Assembly: GCA_046329805.1 (NCBI GenBank) | Contig: JAXLUA010000004.1 | Coordinates: 183,263 to 247,262, forward strand | Origin: Chitinophagales bacterium | Lineage (GTDB): Bacteria > Bacteroidota > Bacteroidia > Chitinophagales > JADIYW01 | DNA length: 64,000 nucleotides | Direction: 5' to 3' | Shown here: one piece after another, positions 9,729 through 30,790 of the stretch | How positions within the stretch are numbered: the stretch's first letter is position 1 | How the letters are laid out: each line of letters opens with the position of its first letter | Translations under genes and position numbers: made by a program | The notes under the pieces: generated by a model | Database searches by the model: none | What the model saw: the letters and a program-made list of their open reading frames with translations, nothing else | Told to the model about the DNA's origin: nothing

Positions 9729-11030
9729 ATGAATTCAATATTCCCCAACTATTGCTGTATTATATTGCTCTTATTATTTTGCAAAATGGGAAGCGCACAA
9801 AAATTAGTATCTAAACCATTTATCGGACATACGGATTCAGCATCGGTTAATGTATGGTGCATGTTCCAAAAAGCACAAGCCGTATTTATTCGAAATTCTG
9901 ATGGGCAACAAAAAATATTTTTATGGGATAAACAAAAATGCTATAAAAAATACTTACCCATAACTATTCATTTTGGTCAGCTCCAAAAAAATAAAGCTTA
10001 TACATTGGAATATTCTTTTAATGGACAAAATTATTATCCGTTAATTTCCGTACAGACCGACAATATAGACAGTTTACAAAATATATCTTTTTTAGCCGGT
10101 TCATGTGCTTTTATCAGTACCGGATTTAATGGGATAATAAAGCCATTTAACAGCCTTAGAATTTTTAAAGAAATGAAAAAGGACAGCAGCAATATGCTAT
10201 TATGGCTCGGCGACAATTTATATTACGTACTACAACCATTTAATTACAAATCTCAATTAAAAAGAAATATAAAAACCAGATTGAATAAAAAACTAAATGA
10301 GTTATTGGCCTCCAAACAAAATTATGCTATTTGGGACGATCACGATTATGGACATAATAATAGTGATGGTTTTTTTAAATTTAAAAAGAACTCATTAAAT
10401 GTATTTCAACAATTTTGGCCTAACCCGACGAATGACACCTTCAATTACTTTACCTACAAAAAATCAGATGTACAATTCTTCATGCTGGATGACAGATACA
10501 ATAATGAACATGAAAAATCTGTTTTAGGCACTACACAATTAGCGTGGCTGAAAAAAGAATTAGCGGCTTCCGATGCAAATTTTAAATTTATCTGTATCGG
10601 CATGCAGGCAATAAATCCGGTAAGCACAAAAGAATGTTTTTATAAAACTACTTCGGAGTTCAAAAGCCTCCTCGACTATATACAACTGCAAAAAATAAAT
10701 GGTGTGGTATTCCTTTCAGGCGATCGCCACCATGCCGAACTGTTAAGAGTACAGGAAAACGGCATGTATCCACTGTATGATTTTACCACTTCGCCATTAA
10801 CAATGTATCCCGTTAAAATTGGAAAGAGGAGCAAAGAACTCAAGAATCCTTACAGAATAGTGGGTACGTATTATCCAAGTTACAATTATGGAAAAATAAC
10901 CGTGAGCGGAGATTTTAATGCAAGAAAATGCCTATTGGAGCTAAAAAATAAACAAGGGAATGTGATTTGGAGGTATGAAATAAATAAGGAAGATTTGGTC
11001 ATAAAACCACAGCCATTGATAATCAATTGA
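9729..11030 (+). CDS. PhoD-like metallophosphatase, secreted
   Basis: Signal peptide, plus LGDNLYY, IWDDHDYGHNNSD and FLSGDRHHAEL metallophosphoesterase motifs. Confidence 0.75.
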   Translation: MNSIFPNYCCIILLLLFCKMGSAQKLVSKPFIGHTDSASVNVWCMFQKAQAVFIRNSDGQQKIFLWDKQKCYKKYLPITIHFGQLQKNKAYTLEYSFNGQNYYPLISVQTDNIDSLQNISFLAGSCAFISTGFNGIIKPFNSLRIFKEMKKDSSNMLLWLGDNLYYVLQPFNYKSQLKRNIKTRLNKKLNELLASKQNYAIWDDHDYGHNNSDGFFKFKKNSLNVFQQFWPNPTNDTFNYFTYKKSDVQFFMLDDRYNNEHEKSVLGTTQLAWLKKELAASDANFKFICIGMQAINPVSTKECFYKTTSEFKSLLDYIQLQKINGVVFLSGDRHHAELLRVQENGMYPLYDFTTSPLTMYPVKIGKRSKELKNPYRIVGTYYPSYNYGKITVSGDFNARKCLLELKNKQGNVIWRYEINKEDLVIKPQPLIIN

Positions 11031-11157
11031 TTATCAATAGGAACAAAACACAAATTTAATCAAATGTGGATAAAATGTGGACTTAATAAAAAATCAACAT
11101 AAACGCAAAAATATTCCACAAAAAATTACTATCTTTGCAACTCCAAAATTAAAAATC

Positions 11158-11466
11158 ATGTACGCAATTGTAGAAATAGGCGGTCATCAATTCAAAGTAG
11201 CACAAAACCAAGAGATTTTCGTGTATAAATTAGATGGCAATGCCGGTGACAAAGTTAACTTTGACAAAGTATTATTAGTATCCGGTGATGCAGGTACAAA
11301 AGTAGGCGCTCCTACGGTAAGTGGTGCTGCTGTGTCCGGTACTATCATCGAACATACTAAAGGTGACAAAGTAATCGTTTTCAAAAAGAAAAGAAGAAAA
11401 GGCTATAAAGTTAAAAACGGCTTTAGACAGTCTTATACAAAAGTAAAAATTGACGCAATTGCGTAA
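11158..11466 (+). CDS. rplU: 50S ribosomal protein L21
   Basis: [15 protein letters not shown]-terminus. The start was trimmed from 11077 to 11158. A TATCTTTG -7-like box lies at 11130-11137. Confidence 0.95.
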
Positions 11467-11492
11467 TTCGTAAACTCAAAAATTCTAATAAA

Positions 11493-11741
11493 ATGGCTCA
11501 CAAGAAAGGTGTCGGTAGCTCCAAAAACGGTAGAGAATCACACAGCAAGCGATTAGGTGTTAAATTATACGGCGGTCAAGATGTTATCGCAGGAAATATT
11601 ATCATCCGTCAACGCGGAACAAAATTCCATCCGGGCGAAGGGGTTGGCTTAGGAAAAGACCATACTATCTTTGCTACTAAAGACGGTAAAGTATTGTTCA
11701 AAAAAGGATACAAAGACAGAACATTTGTGCATGTAGCATAA
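11493..11741 (+). CDS. rpmA: 50S ribosomal protein L27
   Basis: [24 protein letters not shown]...[13 protein letters not shown]. Confidence 0.95.
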
Positions 11742-13182: not shown

Positions 13183-14184
13183 CTACAAAAATGCGACTTT
13201 TTCCACTAATTCCGCCAAGCGGTTGGCATAGCCATATTCATTATCGTACCAACCTACAATTTTCACCAAATCACCAATTTGCTGCGTAAGTCCTGCATCG
13301 AACGTGCAGGAAACCGGAGTGTGAATTATATCGCTGGAAACGATAGGTTCTTCGGTGTAAGCTAAAATATTTTTAAAAGAATTTTCGGCTGCCGATTTAA
13401 AGGTGGCATTTATTTCTTCAATAGTTGTTTGTTTTTCAATATTACAATATAATTCGGTAGAAGAACCAACGATAACCGGAACACGAACAGCGCTTCCTTT
13501 TATTTTTCCTTTTATTTCGGGCATCACCCATTCCAAAGCCTTATTGGCATTGGTAGTAGTGGGAACAATATTTTGTGCGGCTGCGCGCGCTCTTCTAAAA
13601 TCGTTTCCATGTATGCCGTCGTGCAAGCGTTGGTCGCCGGTGTAGGCATGTATGGTATTCATAAATGCATTCTTAATTCCAAAATTATCTTGCATTACTT
13701 TTACCATTGGGGCTAAGCAATTGGTGGTACAAGAGGCATTGGATAAAATAGTATCTTCTTTGGAAATAGCGTTGTCATTTATGCCCAAAACTATTGTTTT
13801 CACTGACTTATCAGCCGGTGAAGAGATAACTACTTTTTTAGCACCGGCATCAATATGTTCTTGTAATTTCTCTCTGTCGCGATATTTTCCGGTACATTCC
13901 ACCACGATGTCTATGTTCAAATCTTTCCAAGGTAAATCGGTAGAAGCAGCGATAGAAGTGCTGATTATTTCTTGACCTTCAATGAGGAGGTGATTTTCTT
14001 TTGCGGTAATCGTTTTATTCCATTTTCCTTGAGCGGTATCATGTTTTAGCAGGTATATTAAAGCATCGTTGGGAGCTAAATCGTTGATGGCAACGATATC
14101 TACCATTTGCTTATCAAAAAGTAATTGGAACACCAAGCGCCCAATGCGCCCTAATCCATTAATAGCAATACGAGGTTTAGCCAT
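13183..14184 (-). CDS. gap: Glyceraldehyde-3-phosphate dehydrogenase
   Basis: INGLGRIGRLVFQ Rossmann N-terminus, and active site SNASCTTNCLAP. Confidence 0.95.
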   Translation of the reverse strand: MAKPRIAINGLGRIGRLVFQLLFDKQMVDIVAINDLAPNDALIYLLKHDTAQGKWNKTITAKENHLLIEGQEIISTSIAASTDLPWKDLNIDIVVECTGKYRDREKLQEHIDAGAKKVVISSPADKSVKTIVLGINDNAISKEDTILSNASCTTNCLAPMVKVMQDNFGIKNAFMNTIHAYTGDQRLHDGIHGNDFRRARAAAQNIVPTTTNANKALEWVMPEIKGKIKGSAVRVPVIVGSSTELYCNIEKQTTIEEINATFKSAAENSFKNILAYTEEPIVSSDIIHTPVSCTFDAGLTQQIGDLVKIVGWYDNEYGYANRLAELVEKVAFL

Positions 14185-14300: not shown

Positions 14301-14375
14301 GGCCCGTTCGTCTAGGGGTTAGGACAGGAGATTTTCATTCTTCAAACAGGGGTTCGATTCCCCTACGGGCTACCA
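14301..14375 (+). tRNA. tRNA-Glu (anticodon UUC), CCA encoded
   Basis: Hand-folded cloverleaf. Acceptor GGCCCGT/ACGGGCT (G1-U72 wobble), D stem GTCT/GGAC, anticodon stem GGAGA/TCTTC with loop TTTTCAT (TTC), T arm AGGGG-TTCGATT-CCCCT, discriminator A and CCA. Confidence 0.9.
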
Positions 14376-15882
14376 CAAGGGAAAGACTTTCATTATTGGA
14401 AGTCTTTTTCTTTTTTACCTCATCTAACTCATTGATATTGTTACACATTAGACTTAGTATTTCATTGGGTTTTGTGGTTCGATAACTACTATTTGAAAAC
14501 ACCAACTTTTCAGGGAATATCAAACCAATCATTTTCTGTTTATTTTCCAAATTTGACTGGTTATAGTAGTAAGATAAATTACTCAATAACGAAAATCCAA
14601 ACTTGCTATATTCAGCAAATCCATTTGTTGCACCTTTCAAATCTTCAATTCTATTCTTCAGTTCTACTATTTGTACCGCATACTTATCTTTTAGCATTTT
14701 ATAATCATGCTTATCCAAGCCACCATCAATTAAACTTTCAGCGGTCTTTTCTTGTTTATCTTTTGTTGCAGCAATTTGTTGATTTAACTTTTTAATCTCA
14801 GCTTCCCTATCACCTTCATTTGTTTTAAAAACATCTTCCATTATAGCAATATATAAACTTGCAATTTCAGGTTTTAGAGAAATAGATGTAAGCCATTTAT
14901 TAAATGAAGTATGAGCAATATCAGACTTAAATCTTTCTTTGCAACCAGACTGACAATGATAATAATAGTAAATACCACCATTTCCTTTAGAAGCACTTCC
15001 AGTTAGGTTTTTACCGCAGCAACTACAAACCAAAAAACCACGCAAAGCCAATTCTTCTTTTGCTTTACCTTTTTTGGCTTTAATTTTTTTCTTTCCAGAT
15101 AAAACATATTGCACTTCATTAAATAATTCTTCACTAATTATGGGTGCATGCAATCCTTTTACTAACTCCTCTCTTTCATTTTTAAACTCTTTTATCCTTA
15201 TCATTCCATAATAAAAAGGGTCACGCAACAACATCCAAAATCTATTTCTACTAACCTTTAAACCTTGCTTATTCATTTCTTTACGTAGTGCATCAATTTC
15301 CCACAATCCAGTAGCATACAATTCAAACGCTTTTTTTACCAATGGTTCTGATTTTGAAAATACGATGATAGGTCTATTCAGAGTATCACGAGCATTCCTG
15401 TATCCTATTGGTGCGCCACTTACCCATCTGCCCTCTTTCATAGCCTTTCGCATACCATTGGTAGTATTCAAAGAACGTCTTGCATTTTCAACCTGAGGTG
15501 TAGCCATGTAAATAGCTTTCATTAAGATATTTTCAGGCACGCTTTCATCTAAAAGTTGTTCAATTGCTTCCAATTCAACACCCATCTTTTTGAGTTGTGT
15601 TATCATCACTAATCCACCCTCTAAATCCCTCGAAAACCTATCAAACTTAATAACCAGAAGTTTTTTCACAAAACCTTTGTTACTTTTTAAGAAAGCAAGC
15701 AATTTATTAAATGCTGGTCTATCGAATGTCTTAGCAGAATGGTCATCTTGAAAATGTTGCACAACAGTATAGCCGTTAGCTTCAGCATACCTTTCTAACT
15801 TTTCTTTTTGGTCTCGTAAGCTAAAACCCTTTTCAGCCTGTTCATCTGTTGACACCCTTGTGTATAGTATTACATTTGCCAT
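14335..15882 (-). CDS. Large serine recombinase (resolvase/invertase N-domain, recombinase domain, zinc ribbon, coiled coil)
   Basis: MANVILYTRVSTDEQ catalytic-Ser motif, CSCCG...YYYHC zinc ribbon, 515 aa as integrated. The last 46 codons are read from host DNA through the tRNA terminator into the antisense tRNA-Glu. Confidence 0.85.
   Translation of the reverse strand: MANVILYTRVSTDEQAEKGFSLRDQKEKLERYAEANGYTVVQHFQDDHSAKTFDRPAFNKLLAFLKSNKGFVKKLLVIKFDRFSRDLEGGLVMITQLKKMGVELEAIEQLLDESVPENILMKAIYMATPQVENARRSLNTTNGMRKAMKEGRWVSGAPIGYRNARDTLNRPIIVFSKSEPLVKKAFELYATGLWEIDALRKEMNKQGLKVSRNRFWMLLRDPFYYGMIRIKEFKNEREELVKGLHAPIISEELFNEVQYVLSGKKKIKAKKGKAKEELALRGFLVCSCCGKNLTGSASKGNGGIYYYYHCQSGCKERFKSDIAHTSFNKWLTSISLKPEIASLYIAIMEDVFKTNEGDREAEIKKLNQQIAATKDKQEKTAESLIDGGLDKHDYKMLKDKYAVQIVELKNRIEDLKGATNGFAEYSKFGFSLLSNLSYYYNQSNLENKQKMIGLIFPEKLVFSNSSYRTTKPNEILSLMCNNINELDEVKKKKTSNNESLSLVVARRGIEPLFEE
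14383..14416 (+). terminator. Rho-independent terminator after tRNA-Glu
   Basis: Stem AAGACTTTC (14383-14391) / GGAAGTCTT (14398-14406) followed by TTTCTTTTTT. Confidence 0.7.
14475..14487. repeat. Left copy of the 13-bp direct repeat (putative attL core)
   Basis: TGGTTCGATAACT, identical to 32654-32666. It lies inside the 3' end of the recombinase ORF (codons SYRT). Confidence 0.7.
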
Positions 15883-16027
15883 TTTTTGATGGTTTTAAAG
15901 ATTTATAAATCTGATAGTCAAGGTTACCTAACTTGTACAGTAGGTCTCTAATTTGCTTAACTTGTTCGTCTGTGTAAGTTTGTCCGTTTTGTTGTAATGT
16001 TTTTTTACATTTTTCTAAATTTAACAT
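15842..16027 (-). CDS. Small hypothetical protein upstream of the recombinase (overlaps its start by 41 nt)
   Basis: ORF only, with no recognised motif. Its position suggests co-transcription with the recombinase. Confidence 0.35.
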   Translation of the reverse strand: MLNLEKCKKTLQQNGQTYTDEQVKQIRDLLYKLGNLDYQIYKSLKPSKNGKCNTIHKGVNR

Positions 16028-16101
16028 GTTGAAATCGCGTAACTACAACCTCAGGGCTTCTGATAGCTTTAGTGATTTGCAATTAGTCAGGGTGCTCCCC
16101 T

Positions 16102-16926
16102 TTATAACTTCTTTTTTATTTTTCTTAAAATTCTTGTTACACGTCCATCCTCTTCAATTAGTTCGATGGAAGCATATTTTTGCTCTTTTAAAATTTCATC
16201 AATCTTCTTTCTACAACTCACACTCTCCATTCCCTCGATTAAATCAATTTTACCACCCTTATACCTAACTTCTATTTTCTCAAAGGTTTTAATCCGCATA
16301 AAAGCAAGTAATTCTACCTCTTCAATGCTTAATGCAGCTTCATTTGTCACAGTAGGCTTCAAATCCACATCAGGGAAAAAACCTTGTATTATGTTATTCA
16401 AACTCAATTGTATATGATTATCCAATCCTAAAAAATCTCTTGACACTTTATACTGTGTATAATTAGCAGGTATCGCAACACCATCAGTAAAGACTAAAAT
16501 CAAGACCGGCATTTTATTTCCTATTGCAAAAGCAGTATAAAATTCAAGCAAAGGCATAGCTACACCGCACTTTTTACTATGAAATTCAAGACTTTCCTTA
16601 GTTACCTTAATCTGATTCCAACTCATACCAAAAGCCCTTAATTCATGTATTATTTTCAGCCAAATAGCATCCATTACACTAAATTTCCGCCACTCTTTCC
16701 CTGCTCTGGTCTTATCTAACAATCCCTCTTTCTCCCAACCGCTTATTTGCCTGTACGATATATTCTTAAATACCACCTTTCTGTCTCTGTCATTTAAGAT
16801 ATTTGATATATGATTACCCTTTCGTTCTTTAAAGTATTGGTAAAATCCATTATCAAAAGCATCATGCCTATATGCATCCAGTGCAATATCTCTTGTATTA
16901 GCGTTTTCTTTAGGGGGTTTCATCAT
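16102..16926 (-). CDS. MerR-like HTH domain protein with an uncharacterised C-terminal domain
   Basis: ISYRQISGWEKEGLL...WRKFSVMDAIWLKIIHELRAFGMSWNQIK follows the MerR-type HTH plus wing pattern. The C-terminal ~150 aa are unrecognised. Confidence 0.55.
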   Translation of the reverse strand: MMKPPKENANTRDIALDAYRHDAFDNGFYQYFKERKGNHISNILNDRDRKVVFKNISYRQISGWEKEGLLDKTRAGKEWRKFSVMDAIWLKIIHELRAFGMSWNQIKVTKESLEFHSKKCGVAMPLLEFYTAFAIGNKMPVLILVFTDGVAIPANYTQYKVSRDFLGLDNHIQLSLNNIIQGFFPDVDLKPTVTNEAALSIEEVELLAFMRIKTFEKIEVRYKGGKIDLIEGMESVSCRKKIDEILKEQKYASIELIEEDGRVTRILRKIKKKL

Positions 16927-17027
16927 TGGTTTATCTAAACAAATATACGCAAATTATACCAATCAGTAAGGTTTTTTTATACACATTTTTTTACTATTTT
17001 TGATTTAATCTATTAACTATATATACT

Positions 17028-17903
17028 ATGAATGTTGGCTCTAAAAAACACCTGCCTAAGTCTTCAAACTTTGAAGTATTTCGTTATCAGTTAGTTGTCG
17101 ACAAAACGCTGCAAATGGATATGTTTAAACAGTACCAAACAGCAGAAGACATCAGAGCAGACAAAAACAACATCTTTCACGAAATTCTAAATGCTCCAAA
17201 TTTCAATTTTTATTCCAGTAAGTCAGAGATAACATCGAAACTCCTCTATCAGAAAGATACGATGTACTATTACAAAATTGGAGTTAAAAGAAATGCAAAG
17301 GTCTTTAAGAAAGATTTTACAGAATCCAATATTGAAAACTACCCGAATATTATTGTAGCTATCAATAACCACCCTGAAGTACAGAAAATTGCCATTCAGG
17401 ATAATATTAAAGCATTTGGTAATTGTAAGATAGTTAGCCATTTCATACAAGACACTATTGATACAAAACTGAAAGCATACAATCTTTCAATGATGGCTGA
17501 ACCCTTATTTGATAAAAAAGAATTTTGGAAACTGGTACATAAATACCCGAAACAAATCCGGCAACTAACTTTTGATTTAGTTTCGCCGAATATGGCTAAT
17601 ATTTCTAAAAACTTAGACATTAATCTCAAACAGTTATACGAAGATACAAACACACACAAAACAAAAGTCGAATTAAATGCGGATGAGGGTAGTTATTTAG
17701 ACATTAAAGACAGTAGCAAATTCATAAATAGTTTAGTAGATTACAGTGCAGATGGTGGTGGTAATATACACATGCGTGTAAATGGTATTCGTAAGAAATT
17801 GCACACTGCCGAATCTCCAACAGAATTTAATATAGATGAAATGCTTCTAAAGAATGATGATTGGGAAAAACTAGACGTGTATTTTAGAGAAATCCTAATT
17901 TAA
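17028..17903 (+). CDS. Hypothetical protein (291 aa), divergent from the MerR-like gene
   Basis: Clean ORF with no signal peptide and no motif recognised. Confidence 0.55.
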   Translation: MNVGSKKHLPKSSNFEVFRYQLVVDKTLQMDMFKQYQTAEDIRADKNNIFHEILNAPNFNFYSSKSEITSKLLYQKDTMYYYKIGVKRNAKVFKKDFTESNIENYPNIIVAINNHPEVQKIAIQDNIKAFGNCKIVSHFIQDTIDTKLKAYNLSMMAEPLFDKKEFWKLVHKYPKQIRQLTFDLVSPNMANISKNLDINLKQLYEDTNTHKTKVELNADEGSYLDIKDSSKFINSLVDYSADGGGNIHMRVNGIRKKLHTAESPTEFNIDEMLLKNDDWEKLDVYFREILI

Positions 17904-17951
17904 GATGCAAAATTTTTCAAATAAATAATTGGTCTCTAATATCAAATTTTC

Positions 17952-17981
17952 GACAGTATTTATAAAAACTGTCCATTTTTT
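17952..17981 (+). terminator. Weak rho-independent terminator after the 291-aa gene
   Basis: Stem GACAGT (17952-17957) / ACTGTC (17968-17973) followed by a T6 run (17976-17981). Confidence 0.4.
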
Positions 17982-18027
17982 GGTTTCAAATATTTTCCTG
18001 TAAATTCATTTTACTGTCCATTTTTTG
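17968..18027 (+). promoter_or_regulatory. Two 15-bp direct repeats ACTGTCCATTTTTTG upstream of abiEi (candidate operator)
   Basis: Exact copies at 17968-17982 and 18013-18027, immediately 5' of the AbiEi ORF. Confidence 0.45.
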
Positions 18028-18034
18028 AACATAA

Positions 18035-18820
18035 GTGCTATATTTACATCTGATAACAATATATATCGTGCCTAAAGATTTTATTACAGAACAGCTAAAA
18101 CAAAGATTTATGGGTCAACCCCATATCTCCAGAGAAGAATTGCTGCACTTTTACAGGTCATTTGAGCCTGATTTAAAGGAAGGAACTTTTGGTTGGCGTA
18201 TTTATGCATTGAAAGAAAAAAACTTATTAAAACCTGTAAGAAAAGGGGTTTATACCCTATCTGTCAAGCCACAATTCCATCCTGCCCTAGATGCTAAGTT
18301 AAAAGAACTGTCAAACAAGATTGGAAAGCAGTTTCCATTTGCCAAATATTGCGTCTGGAATACTCGCTGGCTGAATGAATGGATGATACACCAGCCCGGC
18401 AGATTCTTAACCATAGTGGAGGTGGAAACTTCGGCAACAGAATCCGCTTTTTATTTTCTAAAAGACAATAACTTCAAAAATGTATTCCTCAACCCTGATG
18501 AAGAAGTACTGGAAAGATATATTTATGAAGAATCAGAAACCATAATTGTAAAAACACTGGTATCTAAATCACCGCTGAAAAAAGAAAAAAAGATTCCTGT
18601 TCCGGCAGCAGAAAAGATTTTGGTAGATTTATTTATCGACAAAAAGATATTTGCCCCCTTTCAGGGAAGTGAATTAGTCTATATCTTCAATAACGTATAT
18701 AAGCAATATGCGCTGAATATGACAAAACTACTGGCTTATGCCAAACGCAGAACCAAAGAGCCTGAACTATTGGATTTCATCACTAAGAATACACAACTCA
18801 CAGAATTATTAAGCGAATGA
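18035..18820 (+). CDS. abiEi: AbiEi-family type IV antitoxin / transcriptional regulator
   Basis: The N-terminal wHTH-like segment ITEQLKQRFMGQPHISREELLHFY...KNLLKPVRKGVYTL is typical of the AbiEi_4 N-domain. A 4-bp ATGA overlap joins it to the downstream AbiEii gene. The start is ambiguous (GTG 18035, GTG 18068 or ATG 18110). Confidence 0.7.
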   Translation: MLYLHLITIYIVPKDFITEQLKQRFMGQPHISREELLHFYRSFEPDLKEGTFGWRIYALKEKNLLKPVRKGVYTLSVKPQFHPALDAKLKELSNKIGKQFPFAKYCVWNTRWLNEWMIHQPGRFLTIVEVETSATESAFYFLKDNNFKNVFLNPDEEVLERYIYEESETIIVKTLVSKSPLKKEKKIPVPAAEKILVDLFIDKKIFAPFQGSELVYIFNNVYKQYALNMTKLLAYAKRRTKEPELLDFITKNTQLTELLSE

Positions 18821-19908
18821 TAGTACCGGCATCATATACTCCTGAATGGATAATGGGAAAAAGGAAAATATATCCTAAAAGTGACCCTTCTATAATGGAA
18901 AAGGTTATTTATGCACTAACATTAGTGGAACAGTTAGCCCAAACAGACCTAGCATTTACATTTAAAGGCGGCACAAGTCTCTTACTGATATTGCCAGAAC
19001 CAAAAAGATTCTCAATTGACGTAGATATTGTGACAACTGAAAGCAGAGAAAAAATTGAAGCAATATTAGCAGACATTTGTAAGCAAGGTATATTCAGCAA
19101 ATTTGAGTTAGATAAATTAAGAAGTTATAAGCCTGGTATACCAAAAGCACATTATCTGCTTACATTCTATTCACAATTAGAAAGTAAAGAAAAAATAATC
19201 CTGCTGGATGTATTATACGAAGAACATGGCTACCCGGCATTAATACAAGCTCCAATAACAAACGAATGGATTCAGACAGATGACAACCTGTTAACGGTAC
19301 AGATACCAACCGTAGATTCTATTACTGGTGATAAGCTAACTGCTTATGCGCCTAATACGATTGGCATTCATTTCAGAGTTGAACATAAGGATGGCAGAGT
19401 AACAGAAAAGCAAATGGAAGTAATGAAACAACTATTTGACATTGGTATTTTATTTGAAAAAATTACTAATCTTACTCATTTTAAACAATCTTTCGCTACC
19501 ACATCAGCAAAAGAGATTGCATACAGAACCGAACAAAACATTACACAGGAAACTGTATTAAATGACATTATAGATACCTCCTTGATGATTGCTTCAATGG
19601 GCAAATTCTTTGATGCTAATGGAGATTTTAAACATATACAAGTTGGGCTTACCGGGCTTAAATCATTTATCTATAATGGTGCATTTCGTATTGATGAAGC
19701 GATAGTGGCATCATCGAAAGCTGTTTATCTGGCAGCTATCATCCTGACAGATTATAAAGGAGAAATTCAACGTTGGCAGGATGGTGATGACATTATGAAG
19801 TACGTGATAAAACCTATCGAATATCAATTCCTAAATAAACTAAGAAATATTCCCGGTGCTCCGCTATTTTATTGGCATCAAACATTAAGTTTGATGGATA
19901 AACTATAA
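18817..19908 (+). CDS. abiEii: AbiEii/AbiGii-family nucleotidyltransferase toxin (DUF1814)
   Basis: FTFKGGTSLLLIL...RFSIDVDIV matches the nucleotidyltransferase GS-x-DxD pattern of AbiEii. It is paired with AbiEi. Confidence 0.75.
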   Translation: MIVPASYTPEWIMGKRKIYPKSDPSIMEKVIYALTLVEQLAQTDLAFTFKGGTSLLLILPEPKRFSIDVDIVTTESREKIEAILADICKQGIFSKFELDKLRSYKPGIPKAHYLLTFYSQLESKEKIILLDVLYEEHGYPALIQAPITNEWIQTDDNLLTVQIPTVDSITGDKLTAYAPNTIGIHFRVEHKDGRVTEKQMEVMKQLFDIGILFEKITNLTHFKQSFATTSAKEIAYRTEQNITQETVLNDIIDTSLMIASMGKFFDANGDFKHIQVGLTGLKSFIYNGAFRIDEAIVASSKAVYLAAIILTDYKGEIQRWQDGDDIMKYVIKPIEYQFLNKLRNIPGAPLFYWHQTLSLMDKL

Positions 19909-20000
19909 AAATAAACTTATGTAAATTAACAGATAAAACAAAAATGGAATAAAGAATGAGTTTGTCTATTATGTTTTAACTTCTTTTAATTAAACCAGCC

Positions 20001-21953
20001 ATGACACTAAGTGAAGAAATAATAAACAAGCTATATTCAAAGCGTTCAGTGCTTATTGGAAGGTCTGAAAATGAATCACAGAATGATATAGTGGTACATG
20101 ACCTAACCGTCTCTCGTACTCATTGCAAACTCGAAATTTCATCGGATAACAAAATAATTCTCACCGATTTAAATTCCAAAAATCATACCTACGTAAATGG
20201 AAATCCATTGATAAATGATTCTATGGTCATTAGTGAAACAGATTTTATTTCTATTGGCAATAATGTTTTTTCACTCAGTAAAAAAAGTATCCCAAAAGAA
20301 ATAGCTATTACGGCTATAGACATAAGCAAGAGATTTTCCAATAATAAAGTTGCCTTAAACCCTATTTCCTTCAGTATATTTCAGGGTGATTTTGTTGCTA
20401 TTCTTGGTCCAACAGGTTGTGGTAAATCTGTCTTACTTAAAGTCTTAAATGGGTTTGACCCGGCAAGCTCCGGCAAGGTTGAGTTTTGCGGAAATGATTT
20501 ATATAAAGACTATAAGAAATGTAAAGAATTAATTGGATATGTACCGCAAGATGATATTGTACACAGCGAATTAACAGTTAAAGAAGCATTATATTTTTCA
20601 TTTCAACTGAGGAATAAGGAAAATGTGGATGATGATATAGTCTACAAAAAAATCAATGAAGTACTAAGTGAACTTAATTTATCAGATGCCGCTATCTTAA
20701 ATCAAAAGGTTGGCTCTTTATCCGGTGGACAAAGAAAAAGAATTTCGATTGCAATTGAATTATTTTCAGACCCTAAAGTCTTATACCTCGATGAACCAAC
20801 TTCTCCATTAGATCCTGAAACGATTGAAGAGTTTTTAGGAAGTATAAAAAAACTGACAGAAAAAGGAACTACCATTATAATGGTTACACACAAACCCGAA
20901 GATTTAAACTTTGTTGACAGAGTCATATGGTTAGGCACGGGTGGTTATTTAGCGTATTATGGAAATAAGGATAAATTCCTGGATTACTTTAAAAAAGAAA
21001 ATGCTATAAATATTTACACTGAACTGAAGAATAAGGATAAAGCACGTTCTTGGTATGAAAAATGGTTTTCTAATTATGACAAAAAAAAGGAAAAACCTGC
21101 AACTGTTACAGAAACAAAATCAGATTATCCCTTCTTTAGGCAACTATATTGGTTGACATACAGATACTTTAAGATAAAACTTAACGACAAAGGATATATG
21201 GCATTATTGTTAGCACAGGCTCCTGTCATAGCATGTTTAATTATTCTTATTTTCGATAAGCTAACGTTATCTGTATTGTTTATGATAAACCTGACCGCTA
21301 TATGGCTTGGTTCCAGCAATGCGGCTCGTGAAATAGTAGCAGAATTACCAATCTATCACAGAGAAAGAATGTACAATCTGAAGTTATTGCCTTATGTTCT
21401 GTCAAAACTTTTCGTGCAATTTATTTTTTCTACAGTTCAGTCATTCCTGTTTATAAGTATATTGTTTCTCTTTTATTTCAATTCTGTTATTTCTTTAGAA
21501 CATTACCTGCCGCTTGTAGGAATGATGATTTTAATTTCCATGTCAGCAGTAATAATGGGACTGCTGTTATCAGCTATAGTGAAAACAAGCGAACAGGCTA
21601 TTGCTTTATTGCCCTTACTGCTTATACCCCAGCTTATACTGTCAGGGGTTATTTATCCTATAAACCATAATAAGGTAATAGAATTTTTAAGTTGTGTTTC
21701 ATTAGGCAGGTTAGGCACATCTGCATTTTCGTGTATTCAAGAAAATGTAGAACATGCATTTGCCATAATTAATCAGCATGGATTCATGCACACCCAATAT
21801 AAAGTTATTAATACTGCGGAAGCACTTAATTTACCTGTTACACTGGGCTTAGACCCGAAAAACATGACACTGAATGTTATAATGGTTATTATACTATGTG
21901 CTATATTTATGCTGGGTACTGTTTTTGCATTAAAAAAGAAAGATACGATATGA
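20001..21953 (+). CDS. FHA domain-fused ABC exporter (FHA, NBD, ABC-2/ABCG-type permease in one polypeptide)
   Basis: FHA: IGRSENESQNDIVVHDLTVSRTHCKLE...DLNSKNHTYVNG. Walker A GPTGCGKS, Q-loop VPQDD, signature LSGGQRKR, Walker B VLYLDEPTS, H-loop VTHKP. About six C-terminal TM helices. Confidence 0.85.
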   Translation: MTLSEEIINKLYSKRSVLIGRSENESQNDIVVHDLTVSRTHCKLEISSDNKIILTDLNSKNHTYVNGNPLINDSMVISETDFISIGNNVFSLSKKSIPKEIAITAIDISKRFSNNKVALNPISFSIFQGDFVAILGPTGCGKSVLLKVLNGFDPASSGKVEFCGNDLYKDYKKCKELIGYVPQDDIVHSELTVKEALYFSFQLRNKENVDDDIVYKKINEVLSELNLSDAAILNQKVGSLSGGQRKRISIAIELFSDPKVLYLDEPTSPLDPETIEEFLGSIKKLTEKGTTIIMVTHKPEDLNFVDRVIWLGTGGYLAYYGNKDKFLDYFKKENAINIYTELKNKDKARSWYEKWFSNYDKKKEKPATVTETKSDYPFFRQLYWLTYRYFKIKLNDKGYMALLLAQAPVIACLIILIFDKLTLSVLFMINLTAIWLGSSNAAREIVAELPIYHRERMYNLKLLPYVLSKLFVQFIFSTVQSFLFISILFLFYFNSVISLEHYLPLVGMMILISMSAVIMGLLLSAIVKTSEQAIALLPLLLIPQLILSGVIYPINHNKVIEFLSCVSLGRLGTSAFSCIQENVEHAFAIINQHGFMHTQYKVINTAEALNLPVTLGLDPKNMTLNVIMVIILCAIFMLGTVFALKKKDTI

Positions 21954-22789
21954 ATATAAAGACAAGTAGATTGGTTATTTTATTCCTTTTGTTCGCTACA
22001 TCTTGTAAAGGAAATACCGGATTGGTGACAGAGAAAAAAATCGTTTATCAGTTTCCGAATACATCTGTAGTAGAAAAGATACCGCAGGATTGCATGGCGA
22101 AAGAGGATGATAAACTGATTAATGCTGCAAGCGGAGTTGAATCATTCTTCCTGAATGTTGTTGGCGATGAGGTTACAGAAAAGGATGAAAATAGTTATGG
22201 TAAGATGTTCAACGATGCTTTCAGAAAAGACCTGAAATTTGTTACGGATGTTAATATGAACCGCTTACAGGTTATACTAAAGAAACTTACCCCTTATGTT
22301 CAGCGAAAAGGCATTTCCTATTCCATAATACTTGTGAAAAATGATAACGATGTAAACGCCTGGACACACGCAGGTGGATATATTTACGTTACAACAGGCT
22401 TAATGAAGTTTGTAAACTCGGATGATGAACTCGCTTTTTGTATTGCTCACGAAATCGGTCACAATGAAAATGAACATTGCAAAGCATCTGTGCAACGCAT
22501 TAAAACAGCTAAGAACATGGGTGCAACCAACGAAATGACAGGTATGGCATCAACCATATTTTCGGCTGTTTTTGCAGCATTTAATCAACCACAGGAAACA
22601 GCATCCGACCTCGCAGGGGTCTATTTGATGTATAAGGCAGGTTATGAGCCGCAAAAAGCACTTGATTTTTTCGATAAGATGAGCAAAAATGAACAACCCA
22701 ATGCACTGGAGAAAATGCTGCGTTCTCACCCGTTTGCAACAGAGAGAAGAGCATGTTTACAAACGTATATAAATAATGCGGTACAATAA
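21950..22789 (+). CDS. M48-family zinc metalloprotease lipoprotein
   Basis: Lipobox LFATSC and HEIGHNENEH (HExxH). The start ATG overlaps the ABC stop (ATGA). The ORF-track start at 21896 was trimmed. Confidence 0.75.
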   Translation: MNIKTSRLVILFLLFATSCKGNTGLVTEKKIVYQFPNTSVVEKIPQDCMAKEDDKLINAASGVESFFLNVVGDEVTEKDENSYGKMFNDAFRKDLKFVTDVNMNRLQVILKKLTPYVQRKGISYSIILVKNDNDVNAWTHAGGYIYVTTGLMKFVNSDDELAFCIAHEIGHNENEHCKASVQRIKTAKNMGATNEMTGMASTIFSAVFAAFNQPQETASDLAGVYLMYKAGYEPQKALDFFDKMSKNEQPNALEKMLRSHPFATERRACLQTYINNAVQ

Positions 22790-22795
22790 GTAGAA

Positions 22796-23551
22796 ATGAG
22801 TAAGCAGAGAACAATAACATACGCATCATTTACCGGGATTGGCAAAAAAGCCAATAATGAGGATACTTACTTAACTGAGATACATGAAGAATCAGGTAGT
22901 GCTTTATGTATGGTGTGCGATGGAGTTGGAGGACAAAATAAAGGAGAGATAGCGTCTGCTTTGCTTATTGCTTCATTCAAAGAATATATGGAATCACATC
23001 CCGACTTGCCGGATGAATCCTGGGTTCAGAAAGCTATAAAATATGCGGAAGCCAGGTTTGATGCGCATACACAAGTAAATCCCGATGCAAAAGGAATGGC
23101 AAGTACATTGGCATTGTTGTATATGCACAATGACGAAGCATTGATTGCACATTGTGGCGACAGCCGCGTCTATCATTTTAGAGAAGAAGCTATTTTGTTT
23201 CAGACTAAGGACCATTCCTATGTGAACTGGCTGATTGATCGTGGTGAGATAACTATGGAACAAGTAGCCACACATCCCAAGAAAAATGTGATAACCAGAT
23301 GCATATCGGGTTCCGGGAACCCGACACAGGCGGAGATACATCACATAAAAGATTTACATTCGAATGATTACTTTTTACTCTGTACAGACGGTGTGTTGGA
23401 AGCCTGGAACAATAGAGAACTGGCAAGGTTAATGTTGCCAGAAAATAATATGCAAACAATTACTGATGAATTACAAGATAAATGCAGTCTGTTATCCATT
23501 GATAACTATACCGCCATTTCCATTAAAATAATAGAACAACAGGCATTATGA
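22796..23551 (+). CDS. PP2C-family (PPM) Ser/Thr protein phosphatase
   Basis: GKKANNEDTYL, MVCDGVGGQNKGEIAS and LLCTDGV metal-binding Asp motifs. No signal peptide. Confidence 0.85.
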   Translation: MSKQRTITYASFTGIGKKANNEDTYLTEIHEESGSALCMVCDGVGGQNKGEIASALLIASFKEYMESHPDLPDESWVQKAIKYAEARFDAHTQVNPDAKGMASTLALLYMHNDEALIAHCGDSRVYHFREEAILFQTKDHSYVNWLIDRGEITMEQVATHPKKNVITRCISGSGNPTQAEIHHIKDLHSNDYFLLCTDGVLEAWNNRELARLMLPENNMQTITDELQDKCSLLSIDNYTAISIKIIEQQAL

Positions 23552-24336
23552 ACTTGAAACTTTCTTCTTACATGAAGCATCTGCTGATTTTACTCGGGTT
23601 TATCTGCATGTGTTGTGTTGTGTATGCACAGGATAGCAAGCCAAAATCTAAAGCTACTACCAAACCGACAGTTATAACAAAGCCACCGGCTGCTGCAAAA
23701 CCTATGACAAGGACAACAACTTCATCCGTCACCACTGATAGCAACTATGGCTCTGTTACTGATATTGATGGCAATGTTTATAAAACCGTTAAAATCGGAA
23801 ACCAGATTTGGATGGCAGAAAACTTAAAAACTTCACACTATAATGATGGTACTCAGATACCTAACATAACTGATGGTAACAAATGGGTCTATTTAACAAC
23901 TGGTGCATATTGTTATTATGATAACGAGTATAAGAATAATACAATATATGGCAAGCTATATAATTGGTATGCCGTAAATACGGGTAAACTCGCGCCTAAA
24001 GGATGGCATATACCTACCGATGCGGAATGGTTAATATTAACTACCTTTTTAGGTGGCGAGACTATAGCAGGTGGTAAAATGAAATCTACAAAATATTGGA
24101 AATTACCAAATATAGGGGCAACTAATAACAGTGGTTTTAACTGTTTGCCGGCTGGTTATCGAACCCACATCTATGGTTTATATAACAGTATAGGATATTG
24201 CTGCTACTTTTGGTCTACCACAGAAGGTAATATTTATCCCGCATGGTATCGATCTCTCAGAAACACTAATTCTAATACGATTAGGGACCTTGACAATAAA
24301 GAAAGTGGCTATAGTGTTCGATGTATAAAAGATTAA
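23548..24336 (+). CDS. Secreted FISUMP-domain protein (Fibrobacter succinogenes major paralogous domain, TIGR02145-like)
   Basis: DIDGNVYKTVKIGNQIWMAENL...YGKLYNWYAV...KGWHIPTDAEW...SGFNCLPAGYR...YFWSTTE...GYSVRCIKD. Signal peptide ends VYA|QD. ATGA overlap with the PP2C stop. Confidence 0.8.
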   Translation: MNLKLSSYMKHLLILLGFICMCCVVYAQDSKPKSKATTKPTVITKPPAAAKPMTRTTTSSVTTDSNYGSVTDIDGNVYKTVKIGNQIWMAENLKTSHYNDGTQIPNITDGNKWVYLTTGAYCYYDNEYKNNTIYGKLYNWYAVNTGKLAPKGWHIPTDAEWLILTTFLGGETIAGGKMKSTKYWKLPNIGATNNSGFNCLPAGYRTHIYGLYNSIGYCCYFWSTTEGNIYPAWYRSLRNTNSNTIRDLDNKESGYSVRCIKD

Positions 24337-24343
24337 ATAAATA

Positions 24344-25159
24344 ATGATGAAAGTAAATAAATACAATAAGAATGAAATAACTTCAGAAGAAGAAAATGCC
24401 TATGTTTCCATTCAAATAATTGAAGACGAATTAAATAAAATACAAGGCGGTTTTCCGAATAATTATAATGGTATTTTTGATGAGTTGGAAAGCATTAAAC
24501 TACTTATATCACAAATTGGAGAATTAGTGTTACATGAAGAAAAAGAAACAAAACGCAAAAGAAAGGAAATACTGAATAAAGGAGAAGAACATGAAGTCGA
24601 TGATGTATTTGAAACAACGTCAAAAACACTCAAATTCAGAGAGTACACCTACAATTCTTTGCTTTTCCTGATACACTTAAACTTCGAAAAGTATTTAATT
24701 CAGTTATGTAAGCTAATAAATTCAACCCCATTAAAGAAGGATGATATAATAAATAAATTCCCTGAATCAGAATTTGAGGATGTAGATAGTTTTTATAGAT
24801 TTCTTAATGAACAAGTATCAATAAATACAGAAGTAAAAGATGAAACCTTCCCCACAATAAGAATTTATAAAGAAATAAGGAATGCATTGTACCATAGGGA
24901 TGGGTTTACTTATAAAGAAAATGTTATAACATGGATAAAGATGAGAGAGGACATTTTATTAACAAATAAAAAAACTGGCAAGGTAAAGTGTAAAGAATCA
25001 GGAAAAAAAATTATTAAGAATGTAGAATTCCAAAAGATAAAAATCACTAATTCATCATTTCTTATTTCATATATCAATGATATAGAATCCTACTTCAAGA
25101 AGATATTGGTATTAATAAGAACACGATATTATTCTGCATACGAACAAGGTAAATTATAA
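24344..25159 (+). CDS. Cytoplasmic hypothetical protein with a HEPN-like RNxxxH motif
   Basis: No signal peptide. EIRNALYHRDG (R-x4-H with Asn after Arg) sits in a predicted helical C-terminal half. The call rests on this single motif. Confidence 0.5.
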   Translation: MMKVNKYNKNEITSEEENAYVSIQIIEDELNKIQGGFPNNYNGIFDELESIKLLISQIGELVLHEEKETKRKRKEILNKGEEHEVDDVFETTSKTLKFREYTYNSLLFLIHLNFEKYLIQLCKLINSTPLKKDDIINKFPESEFEDVDSFYRFLNEQVSINTEVKDETFPTIRIYKEIRNALYHRDGFTYKENVITWIKMREDILLTNKKTGKVKCKESGKKIIKNVEFQKIKITNSSFLISYINDIESYFKKILVLIRTRYYSAYEQGKL

Positions 25160-25165
25160 CTAAAA

Positions 25166-25501
25166 ATGAGATTAATGGTCTTAAATACTTGGAGGTGTAG
25201 TGTTTTGATTTTGTTGTTGAATGCTTGTGTTGAATATACAAATGCGCAAGACATCAAACCAAAATCTAAAATTCAGATGCAGAGTTGGCAAAATAATTTC
25301 GATGAAGTCTGGACATTCAAAGAAGGACTTGCAGTAGTTAAGAAAAATAACAAATGGGGTTATGTAGATAACACCGGTACTGTAAAAATCCCATTAATCT
25401 ATGATAAGGCTTATGGTTTTATAAATGGCGTAGCATGGGTGGTGCAAAATGGTAAAAACAGATACATTAACAAAAACGGTAATTGCGTAAAAAATTGCTG
25501 A
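25166..25501 (+). CDS. Secreted WG-repeat (KWG) protein
   Basis: Signal peptide ends TNA|QD. FKEGLAVVKKNNKWGYVDNTGTVKIPLIYDKAYGFINGVAWV matches the WG_beta_rep pattern. Confidence 0.7.
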   Translation: MRLMVLNTWRCSVLILLLNACVEYTNAQDIKPKSKIQMQSWQNNFDEVWTFKEGLAVVKKNNKWGYVDNTGTVKIPLIYDKAYGFINGVAWVVQNGKNRYINKNGNCVKNC

Positions 25502-25521
25502 TAAAATATAATATTAAAAAT

Positions 25522-26172
25522 ATGAAAAATAAATTATGTATTTTCTTAATCTCGGTGGCATACTCAGTAAACGTTGTTAATGCACAAGATAATAAACCAA
25601 AACCAAAATCAAATACAACAATGCCAAAACAATCGAATAATGCATCTAAGCCAATAGTTGTAAAATCACAATCGAAACTAGAAACAATAGAGTGGATATT
25701 AGGTAAATTTAATAAATATGCTTCAACTGACATTGAGACAAATCATTCAAATCTTAATGACAAGTTTGCAATTAAGTATTACTCTTGGAAAGTAAAATAT
25801 TATGATATTCAATACTCTATTGATGATAATTACATGAACATAAAATACAAAACTATTTCATTTGAATATAATGGTAAAATGTACATTCAGAGAGAACGGA
25901 TTACAGAAAACAATATATTGATTCCTATATACGCAATAACTTCAGTTTACAAAGTAGATAATGAATTAGCAATAACTACTATCACGAATGCAATAAAAAA
26001 TGAAGGATTCTATGTTGAAGGCAATAAAAAATCTCCTTTTAAAATAAAAAACAGCTATTTCTCAATACCGTTTTCATTTTATGAAGAAGATGATCTTGGT
26101 GAACGTATTAGCAAGGCATTTATGAACTTAAAAAAATATTATTCACCTCCTACAAACTCTGAAACATTTTAA
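25522..26172 (+). CDS. Secreted hypothetical protein
   Basis: Signal peptide MKNKLCIFLISVAYSVNVVNA|QD followed by a KPKPK linker. No family recognised. The start was trimmed from 25483. Confidence 0.6.
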   Translation: MKNKLCIFLISVAYSVNVVNAQDNKPKPKSNTTMPKQSNNASKPIVVKSQSKLETIEWILGKFNKYASTDIETNHSNLNDKFAIKYYSWKVKYYDIQYSIDDNYMNIKYKTISFEYNGKMYIQRERITENNILIPIYAITSVYKVDNELAITTITNAIKNEGFYVEGNKKSPFKIKNSYFSIPFSFYEEDDLGERISKAFMNLKKYYSPPTNSETF

Positions 26173-26186
26173 TAATAAGTTTTTTA

Positions 26187-27152
26187 TCAGAAGAAATGTT
26201 CTGTTCCTAAGATTTTTAAATACTCATCAATTTTCATTTTTTGAAAATTCGCTGAAGTTTCATACTTCATTTTTTGGTCCCCTGTAACTAAAATAACTTT
26301 TTCATTCTTTACATAGCAATTCATTAGTATATGGCTATCGTTAATTGTATTCCATATATCCCGATTCAAGTCATTAAATTTTGTTCCGGCATTGAATTTT
26401 ATGAAAAAATCCTGCATGTTTTTCATGGCAGATTTATAAATACTAATAAATAATTTCATTTCATTTTCGGAAACGGATAAGTTATATTTTTTAAAATACT
26501 GAGCAGTACCATGCAAGTAAGTTTTGGCCATAATTGAAGCAAATTTCTCTTCTTTTCCTTGTCCTTTAGTTAATGATTTATAAATTTTTTGGTCGCCAAT
26601 TTCACTTTTCTCTAAGTTTACATTTGGATTAAATCCCTTTATAATTTGGGTAAATATTTCAAATTCATTTATTCTGTTCTCAATACAATTTATATGATTA
26701 ATTTCAATAGCATTTGCAATCTCAGAATTATCTTTTATCTGCTCAATAGTTTTACCTTTTAGTATTTCATTTGTTATGTCGTCACAAACCCTTAATACAC
26801 TGTCATTGTAAATCTTCTCATTTTCATCAATAATATCAAAAATATCATTTAAAACTATATTATTCAAGGATGGTCTGTATTTAAATTCATACTTTATTCC
26901 TGTCTGATTTCTGCCATGAAGTATTGAAGCTACTATTCCATTTAAACAGTTATCTCTTTCATTTAAATCTTGTTCATTTTTAGAAAGATGATATAATAGT
27001 TCGGTTAATACTATTACACTTAAGTGTACAGTTAATCCTTTCTCGGCTTCAGCCATTCTAATATTTTTCAATTTCTCCTCAATCTCACTAACTGAGCAGT
27101 TGAGGGTTAAATTTCTATAGGCACATGTATCAAAAATTACATTTGTATTCAT
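26187..27152 (-). CDS. Hypothetical protein, possible split PIN-like nuclease fold
   Basis: Acidic residues appear in PIN-like order: VIFDTCAY (N-terminus), LTELLYHL, INDSHIL and LVTGDQKM (C-terminus). There is a long helical insert. The assignment is weak. Confidence 0.5.
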   Translation of the reverse strand: MNTNVIFDTCAYRNLTLNCSVSEIEEKLKNIRMAEAEKGLTVHLSVIVLTELLYHLSKNEQDLNERDNCLNGIVASILHGRNQTGIKYEFKYRPSLNNIVLNDIFDIIDENEKIYNDSVLRVCDDITNEILKGKTIEQIKDNSEIANAIEINHINCIENRINEFEIFTQIIKGFNPNVNLEKSEIGDQKIYKSLTKGQGKEEKFASIMAKTYLHGTAQYFKKYNLSVSENEMKLFISIYKSAMKNMQDFFIKFNAGTKFNDLNRDIWNTINDSHILMNCYVKNEKVILVTGDQKMKYETSANFQKMKIDEYLKILGTEHFF

Positions 27153-28785: not shown

Positions 28786-28799
28786 CATAAATTAATTCG

Positions 28800-29990: not shown

Positions 29991-30008
29991 AAAATTAATG
30001 CTCATACT

Positions 30009-30431: not shown

Positions 30432-30435
30432 AGGG

Positions 30436-30484: not shown

Positions 30485-30523
30485 GATTGCACCTAATACC
30501 GACTATATATATCAAAATGAAAG

Positions 30524-30789: not shown

Positions 30790-30790
30790 G

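Follow-up and report, generated by a model that had tools for sequence, protein, structure and literature searches.

The window, a 64,000-nucleotide stretch of a genome contig (JAXLUA010000004.1) of a Chitinophagales bacterium, has a single tRNA gene, tRNA-Glu(TTC), and a recombinase gene that runs antisense into it. An earlier note, made from the letters of the window alone, had proposed that an integrated island lies here and that its attachment core, a 13-bp repeat, is nested inside the recombinase gene. By comparison with empty sites, the ends of the island were located elsewhere. It is highly probable that the host tRNA-Glu gene has an 18.3-kb island inserted at its 3′ end, that the large serine recombinase (LSR) open reading frame (ORF) of this island crosses the attachment site of the element (attP) and has a 546-amino-acid (aa) and a 515-aa form, and that attP mimics the T arm of the tRNA.

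The island in the tRNA-Glu gene

The main features of the locus are as follows.

14301–14375, plus strand: tRNA-Glu(TTC) gene (ARAGORN and empty-site comparison)
14335–15882, minus strand: LSR ORF in its integrated form, 515 aa (ORF and domain search)
14364–14373, plus strand: core TACGGGCTAC, copy at the left end of the island, attL (empty sites L084, L086, L088 and L090 compared with the window)
14374–32692: integrated island, 18,319 bp (empty-site comparison)
14377–14412, plus strand: island-borne intrinsic terminator, now ending the tRNA-Glu transcript (terminator scan)
32683–32692, plus strand: core TACGGGCTAC, copy at the right end of the island, attR (junction comparison)
32694–32724, plus strand: original host tRNA-Glu terminator, kept at attR and lying directly after the tRNA in the empty site

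The product of 14335–15882 is an LSR. It matches the Resolvase (PF00239, E=4e-28) and Recombinase (PF07508, E=7e-12) domains, and the zinc ribbon (PF13408) scores 24.0 bits, slightly under the cut-off of 25.3 bits. It also matches the N-terminal domains of TP901-1 and TnpX and the C-terminal domain of the A118 integrase (4KIS, E=7e-9). In the family alignment, R9, V10 and S11 are invariant among 23 homologues; the zinc-binding residues C286, C289 and C314 are invariant too, and C310 is nearly so. The protein has a catalytic resolvase-type domain with the nucleophilic serine, followed by the recombinase domain and a zinc ribbon with a coiled coil. No tyrosine integrase was found in the island, and the island's own LSR is almost certainly the enzyme responsible for the integration. 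The final 41 nt of the ORF, stop codon included, are antisense to tRNA-Glu; the tRNA, the 515-aa LSR ORF and this antisense ending had been described correctly in the earlier note.

The exact protein sequence of the flanking GAPDH (13183–14184) was looked up in public assemblies, which gave contigs of the same species in both states; samples such as ERZ27248705 and ERZ27283041 contain the two states together. In L084, L086, L088 and L090, the right-flank tetratricopeptide repeat (TPR) gene, tRNA-Glu and the GAPDH gene lie side by side with no island. L084, L088 and L090 are metagenome contigs whose encoded GAPDH protein is identical to that of the window; they match about 1.29 kb of the left flank with 0 mismatches and about 1.0 kb of the right flank with 1–6 mismatches. 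The junction of L086 is identical to those of the other empty sites, and a 1-bp indel in its flanks makes the ungapped comparison uninformative. In the empty-site contigs, ...CCCCTACGGGCTAC runs directly into AAAAAAATGCTTCC. The junctions read as follows (bar at the junction; attB is the attachment site of the host).

Empty site, in the orientation of the window: ...CAAACAGGGGTTCGATTCCCCTACGGGCTAC/AAAAAAATGCTTCCACCTTGGAAGCATTTTTT...
attL in the window: ...TTCCCCTACGGGCTAC/CACAAGGGAAAGAC...
attR in the window: ...TGGTTCGATAACTGTCCCGTACGGGCTAC/AAAAAAATGC...
attP junction: GGTTCGATAACTGTCCCGTACGGGCTACCACAAGGGAAAG
attB junction: TTCCCCTACGGGCTACAAAAAAATGC
13-mer junction proposed in the earlier note: CACCATTAATTGGTTCGATAACTACTATTTG

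attL and attR share exactly 10 bp, TACGGGCTAC, and no other common sequence was found at the junctions. The crossover is confined to these 10 bp, which are common to attP and attB. In the tRNA they correspond to the 3′ acceptor-stem strand, followed by the discriminator base and the first C. In L085, the left end of the same island was found, with the same recombinase, MerR-like, AbiEii and FHA-ABC genes. A scan of metagenomes with the host right flank TACGGGCTACAAAAAAATGCTTCC gave one match, L083, which is the occupied attR again, and an exact-protein look-up of the right-flank TPR protein found no record. A GAPDH scan of genome contigs gave one related genome, L004, with an unoccupied tRNA-Glu and another downstream neighbourhood, which is a hint only.

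The island thus lies in a tRNA gene, is bounded on either side by a directly repeated piece of tRNA sequence, and has restored an intact tRNA. The bases of tRNA-Glu up to 14373 match the empty site, and C14374 and A14375, which complete the CCA end, are island-derived. Both the CA end and the terminator of tRNA-Glu are now supplied by the island. The terminator hairpin at 14377–14412 is invariant in L001 and L002 and has equivalents in L097, L180, L096 and L179. Its other strand codes for the stretch KKKTSNNESLS of the recombinase tail.

Two C-terminal forms of the recombinase ORF

When the true ends of the island were rejoined in silico, a 546-aa ORF with a 40-aa tail, TGQLSNQLMVHFKRIYDLKGVLNVKLLTPESMPNGLNYAI, was obtained.

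32561–32683, minus strand: codons 507–546 and the stop codon of the excised-form recombinase (TGQLSNQLMVHFKRIYDLKGVLNVKLLTPESMPNGLNYAI*; in-silico circle)

Codons 1–506 are island-encoded and conserved in homologues. The core lies within codons 504–507, and codon 507 begins on its last base. In the integrated form, codons 507–515 (RGIEPLFEE) and the stop codon (14335–14364) are the antisense of the T arm and the anticodon arm of the host tRNA, and codons 507–546 are parted from the rest of the gene. The ORF codes for 546 aa in the excised state and for 515 aa in the integrated one, so integration removes 40 residues and adds 9; the protein is shortened, not lengthened. The empty sites and the in-silico circle bear out the proposal that the attachment core is inside the recombinase ORF and that integration changes the C-terminus. 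The sizes proposed for the two forms, 470 aa excised and 515 aa integrated, have to be replaced by those given here. As for the 46 residues that had been regarded as host-encoded, the last 9 (507–515) are host tRNA antisense indeed, and the other 37 (470–506) are encoded inside the island.

Is this arrangement a peculiarity of the window? A protein search for homologues gave 2,587 matches at E<=1e-20, and the best 120 (48–92% identity) were compared. About 100 of these 120 are 514–516 aa long and have tRNA-antisense ends (such as GIEP, GFKP, GLEP or RIEL). After IFPEKL....[YF][RQ]T, the best 120 have T.PNEIL.LLC, a KK-rich linker, S.VV and the same tail length, and their neighbouring tRNAs differ. 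L001 and L002 are at tRNA-Glu in the same GAPDH-PGK neighbourhood with other cargo (restriction-modification or helicase). L097, which has 82% identity and comes from the same sample as L085, adjoins tRNA-Arg(CCT), and its similarity to the element of the window starts right after ...CTACCA. L180 adjoins tRNA-Arg(ACG). The same layout was found in relatives of about 37% identity on IMG/VR viral contigs. The family, whose LSR islands and phages are widespread and come mainly from Bacteroidota (Chitinophagales and their relatives), integrates at tRNA 3′ ends via an attP mimicking the T arm.

Excised-form tails are also found in the family. P0041, P0042, P0046, P0108 and P0112 end in ...[LIF]SN[QSF][FL]..., not in tRNA antisense. 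A profile search with excised-form tails gave only 8 short ORFs, from which L178 and L179 come. The tails of three elements are as follows.

L178: LSNQIIDRFSKIYELKGVLNVSMLEPALMPSGYKVAI
L179: LSNQLMESFKRIYDLKDVVPVRLLQPATIPYRLRKVI
L096: LSNQFKQELQQIYELKPFIPVQPLDITNGRKLLKAV

They are 36–37 aa long and end in [AV][IV]*, with length and stop position as in the tail of the window, and the motif SNQ[LF]..F..IY[DE]LK is kept in the excised-form tail of four diverged elements. Since this conservation goes well beyond the approximately 25 bp expected of an att arm, there is moderate evidence, from sequence comparison, that the 546-aa form would be the complete gene. The two isoforms may differ in function.

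A structure model was made of the excised-form homologue P0042. It has long helices at 337–433, corresponding to the coiled coil, and a final β-hairpin of the zinc ribbon at 459–468. In the model, YRT (465–468) lies in the last strand of that hairpin, and a short helix (473–478) comes next.

Some loci of the family have unusual arrangements. L094 has a full-length excised-form recombinase of 536 aa (10001–11611) with defence-type cargo (prok_STING, DUF6088 with AbiEii) on its 3′ side, which suggests that islands are stacked in tandem. At L178:5040–5300 and L179:3340–3560, attP-type junctions lie beside truncated 3′ remnants of the recombinase and host-like genes, with no tRNA in the locus. The L178 remnant ends about 10 nt past the internal 13-mer. 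These two loci may be what deletions in tandem arrays have left, or they may represent a different kind of element. L094, L095 and L096 were searched by k-mers for a second copy of an att site, with nothing informative. At attR of the window, the orphaned 40-residue recombinase tail is fused to the antisense of the host terminator in a 52-aa ORF, P0126 (32561–32719, minus strand), and attR-type ORFs resembling it occur in other genomes (P0127 and P0128).

Attachment sites and the intragenic inverted repeat

In attP, the left arm reads TGGTTCGAT-AACTG-TCCCG-TACGGGCTAC; in attB, it reads GGGTTCGAT-TCCCC-TACGGGCTAC. From this comparison, the left arm of attP is the T arm of the tRNA with 5 extra bp. 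The motifs concerned, together with the two copies of the 13-mer, are listed here.

14351–14358, plus strand: T-loop GGTTCGAT, proposed zinc-ribbon-domain binding motif in the left arm of attB, at positions 13–20 from the putative centre
32664–32676, plus strand: right 13-mer, the putative outer motif of the attP left arm, with the T-loop mimic GGTTCGAT (positions 18–25) and then AACT
14475–14487, plus strand: left 13-mer (codons 466–469, S-Y-R-T), no crossover site; its bases 14475–14484 are the 3′ arm of an inverted repeat in the mRNA sense
14518–14527, minus strand: 5′ arm of the inverted repeat, TGGTTTGATA in the mRNA sense, codons G-L-I of IGLIFPEKL; it pairs with 14475–14484 over a 33-nt loop
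Sequence around the putative att centre: GGGCTACC

The inner arms of attP, CTGTCCCGTACGG and CTTTCCCTTGTGG, form an inverted repeat (9/13) around GCTA. By this symmetry the centre was placed at CT (14370–71 / 32689–90) inside the core, and C14370-T14371 is probably the central dinucleotide. Seen from there, GGTTCGAT is 5 bp farther from the centre in attP (18–25) than in attB (13–20), in the left arms only. The zinc-ribbon-bound motif of the A118 integrase is at 16–24 in attP and at 11–19 in attB, that is, 5 bp nearer the centre in attB (PMC3783163). On the A118 model, the zinc-ribbon domain would be the part of the LSR that binds GGTTCGAT, and I take the right 13-mer to be the outer motif for recognition of attP, together with the adjacent AACT. 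This copy ends 6 bp short of the core, and the left copy lies 101 bp inside the island. The same order, with an arm GGTT[CA]GATAA, about 10 nt, the acceptor strand and CCA, was also found in L178, L179, L096, L094 and L107. It was considered whether the right end is a decayed, displaced 3′ half of the tRNA with the crossover in the T-loop. This was ruled out by attL, which has no AACTG insertion, and by the empty-site junction at the acceptor stem.

In another strain, an element of about 2.5 kb (L087:3284–5812) occupies the same tRNA-Glu attB. It encodes a Phage_CRI-type replication protein and two small ORFs, with no recombinase. At its right end, it carries the same T-loop-mimicking left arm of attP (GGTTCGACAACTGTCCCC, GGTTCGACAACTGTCCCCTACGGGCTAC). 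Probably this element is a satellite for which the LSR acts in trans.

What, then, is the left 13-mer? A search of the window with GGTTCGATAACTA, allowing up to 1 mismatch, gave 3 matches compared with 0.03 expected. The third, GGTTCGATAACCA (24153–24165, minus strand, 1 mismatch), lies inside a cargo gene and is probably due to chance. As judged from the aligned family sequences, an inverted repeat within the coding region is conserved and covaries, and the left 13-mer makes up one of its arms. In 14 distinct family DNAs, Y-R-T or F-Q-T has CGA or CAA as its middle codon without exception, and neighbouring conserved codons vary freely at synonymous positions. Arg is always CGA and Ser always TCG, with synonymous sites elsewhere saturated. 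In the mRNA, 33 nt upstream of the YRT arm, the codons of G-[LS]-I read GGTT[TC]GAT, which is its reverse complement. In a 10-pair stem compared over 13 sequences, 90.8% of cells are paired, against 82% in shuffles and 30–51% with a slid partner. Three stem pairs have changed on both sides, and the covariation score is above all 500 shuffles. Pair 10-60 is GC, AU or UA; pair 14-56 is UG, CG or UA, but never CA. Among 119 proteins, the combinations (Leu,Gln), (Ser,Arg), (Leu,Arg) and (Ser,Gln) occur 52, 44, 23 and 0 times, respectively. The minimum-free-energy folds of five diverged members all close the stem (z-scores from -0.3 to -4.0). Since these statistics come from 13 related sequences, from which the structure itself was derived, the inverted repeat is reported as a lead.

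The intragenic motif also resembles the attachment site. It matches the attP left arm of its own lineage over 13 bp in the window, 15 bp in L178, 11 bp in L107 (variant GGAGTTCGAT) and 10 bp in L096, and it reads GGTTTGA in the tRNA-Arg(ACG) lineage. The residue of Y-R-T/F-Q-T tracks the T-loop of the target: R goes with E in 58 proteins and Q with K in 45, with mixed pairs in 4. The target of the FQT lineage, tRNA-Arg(ACG) at L180:7812–7888, has a T-loop GGTTTGAATCC with U in place of the nearly universal C56, and the internal motif of this lineage shows the same C-to-T change. The idea that Arg or Gln of YRT/FQT contacts the variable base of the motif is unsupported, if conceivable; the DNA-contacting strands of the A118 integrase are β11-12, not the final hairpin (PMC3783163).

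With both copies of the 13-mer placed, the model of the earlier note can be weighed. It took the 13-mer as the crossover, with an island at 14488–32676, 46 host residues and the two forms of 470 and 515 aa. The repeat is real: TGGTTCGATAACT occurs exactly at 14475–14487 and 32664–32676 near both island ends, the left copy does code for S-Y-R-T, and joining at the 13-mer, when recomputed, yields a 470-aa ORF ending in ...SYRTN*, with the stop two codons later. However, the 13-mer is missing from the empty sites, and so are the 101 bp that separate it from the tRNA. The right flank comes directly after the tRNA, and in L084, L086, L088 and L090 the junction is in the acceptor stem, at TACGGGCTAC, 101 bp from where the 13-mer would put it. 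The supposed host tail is conserved beside tRNA-Arg(CCT), tRNA-Arg(ACG) and other tRNAs, with relatives of 48–92% identity sharing a tail of the same length after YRT/FQT, and 0 of the 120 best homologues end near residue 470. A tail conserved in homologues regardless of location, and an empty site mapping away from the repeat, were the two observations that the earlier note itself had named as refuting its model. Both were made, and the model retains next to no probability. A more serious alternative accepts the island boundaries and the recombinase as given above but takes the read-through to be functionless: the protein would work up to about residue 480, the rest would be a disordered appendage shaped by the terminator hairpin and the att arms, and the isoforms would behave alike. 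In the P0042 model, the predicted fold stops at the YRT hairpin and helix 473–478, with low confidence after it; the A118 integrase ends after the equivalent final β-hairpin of its zinc ribbon (PMC3783163). The linker overlaps the conserved terminator hairpin, and in phage relatives the excised-form tails extend only 4–7 residues beyond a conserved TSTG/RPG that overlaps the core. On the other hand, the frame is open through about 35 linker codons in essentially all 120 homologues despite the AT-rich sequence, and the length, stop and motif of the excised-form tail are kept in four diverged elements past the att arm, with differences mostly at third positions. This alternative is plausible, if not probable. 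Several points also weigh against the main reading, that of an LSR island in tRNA-Glu with attP inside a 546-aa ORF. In the model, residues 481–509 have a predicted local distance difference test (pLDDT) score below 50 and the helix at 508–519 in the excised-form tail one of about 57, so the tail could be a tolerated disordered extension. The differences between the tails of the window, L178 and L179 at codon positions 1, 2 and 3 (29, 33 and 55) are sums of only three pairwise comparisons, which are non-independent. The right arms of attP and attB have no clear copy of the T-loop-like motif. A circular junction of this exact element was absent from every collection searched, viral contigs giving no match to the exact attP junction, and the attP-type junctions in L094, L096, L178 and L179 sit in chromosomal-looking contexts; they may come from tandem arrays or be deletion remnants or products, not free circles. 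Finally, no recombination directionality factor was identified; the candidates in the island (a 61-aa, a 63-aa and a MerR-like protein) have no diagnostic match.

Two explanations were considered for the inverted repeat at 14475–84 / 14518–27, and each is put forward tentatively. It may be a DNA site for the recombinase, such as an operator, a decoy or a secondary recombination site. Two T-loop-like motifs face each other there, with outer edges 50–53 bp apart, which is about the size of attP; the motif matches the attP left arm of each lineage and follows the T-loop of the target, and the L178 remnant ends just past it. But the inner-arm motif (TCCC) is absent at the matching positions, and the lack of the CA pair and of (Ser,Gln) among the 119 proteins favours pairing within a single RNA strand over two independent half-sites. 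Moreover, LSRs are not known to have accessory sites. The repeat may instead be a stem-loop of the recombinase mRNA, with a 10-bp stem and a 33-nt loop, that acts on translation or mRNA stability, its likeness to the T-loop being secondary. The pairing frequency, the covariation, the folds of the five members and the fixed CGA and TCG codons agree with this, but it has the same 13 related sequences behind it and leaves unexplained why the motif of each lineage's att site is copied. Both are possible explanations on the doubtful side.

Beyond these, a speculative scheme may be drawn, to which I give little credence. The tail exchange would be a sensor of the integration state: the circle-only tail of 40 residues would favour attP x attB, and the tRNA-antisense tail, or the loss of the helix, would permit or regulate attL x attR. 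The intragenic repeat, as a recombinase-bound site or an RNA switch, would couple expression to the same motif. If true, directionality and autoregulatory control would take a form not described for LSRs.

Cargo and comparison with known systems

Besides the LSR, the island encodes a 61-aa ORF, a MerR-like protein, DUF6577 with AbiEii, an FHA-ABC protein, an M48 peptidase, a PP2C phosphatase, a Ser/Thr kinase with MORN repeats, DUF6943, a staphylococcal-type nuclease and a 63-aa ORF. The cargo at 18035–28785 (DUF6577 with AbiEii, FHA-ABC transporter-like, M48 peptidase, PP2C phosphatase, a Fib_succ_major protein and the Ser/Thr kinase with MORN repeats) resembles a set of genes for defence or signalling. 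Three genes near the ends of the island are the following.

15842–16027, minus strand: 61-aa ORF beside the recombinase, also in L001, L002, L097 and L180
16102–16926, minus strand: MerR-like protein beside the recombinase, also in L001, L002, L097 and L180
32296–32487, plus strand: right-end 63-aa ORF of the island, with conserved counterparts in L178 and L179 and no Pfam match

The 63-aa ORF could be a regulator or a recombination directionality factor, and any of the three may be the directionality factor.

LSRs are widely used tools for genome engineering, and the choice of direction is an active question. This family offers naturally defined attP/attB pairs on highly conserved T-arm and acceptor sequences of tRNAs, and the relative of 82% identity on a different tRNA is a natural experiment in the change of target specificity. 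A gene that reads through attP gives two C-terminal isoforms per element depending on its state, a candidate switch of directionality or stability. It also bears on annotation: "recombinase family proteins" of 514–516 aa with GIEP, GFKP or GLEP at the end have a terminus read from host tRNA antisense, and their full-length form is visible only in the circle.

In Myxococcus phage Mx8, attP is inside the integrase gene intP, and integration gives a new 3′ end and an altered C-terminus, converting intP to intX (PMC6070905). With its attP core likewise inside the integrase ORF, of 546 aa excised and 515 aa integrated, the present island has its closest known case in Mx8. The target of Mx8 is also a tRNA gene. 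However, Mx8 Int is a tyrosine recombinase and the present enzyme an LSR, and here only the last 40 codons are swapped, for 9. Because of the different chemistry, the present system is an analogue of the Mx8 type, not a member of it. Archaeal integrases of the SSV1 type and the integration-dependent immunity of mycobacteriophages also have attP in a coding gene of the element, whose product depends on integration. Integration breaks the SSV int gene into roughly two halves and inactivates it; in the mycobacteriophages it is the repressor that is affected, losing a degradation tag. In contrast, the catalytic and DNA-binding domains are intact here and only a C-terminal appendage changes.

The domain architecture (Resolvase, Recombinase, zinc ribbon and coiled coil) is that of A118/LI, Bxb1, phiC31 and TP901-1, and the 5-bp shift of the outer motif between attP and attB is shared with A118, here in the left arms. 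Unlike these canonical LSRs, the present one targets the T arm and acceptor stem of a tRNA, has attP inside its own ORF, extends 46–77 residues beyond the final β-hairpin of the zinc ribbon and has an attP/attB identity of 10 bp. A systematic survey of LSRs treats protein-coding gene targets, without mention of tRNA (PMC10083194). A literature search for serine integrases with tRNA targets or with attP in their own gene found no description, and absence there is no proof.

The tyrosine-integrase islands found by Islander and TIGER are alike in their insertion at the 3′ end of a tRNA, the restored tRNA and the displaced 3′ segment of the tRNA alongside. They differ in that the enzyme here is a serine recombinase, that the restored segment is just the 10-bp core plus CA, and that the other tRNA-like sequence of attP imitates the tRNA with a 5-bp insertion instead of copying it exactly. 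In summary, the principle of attP in an integrase gene is already known, and the combination of a serine recombinase with a tRNA target was not found described. Of the features of this LSR island family, the putative switch between C-terminal isoforms and the inverted repeat inside the gene are worth attention.

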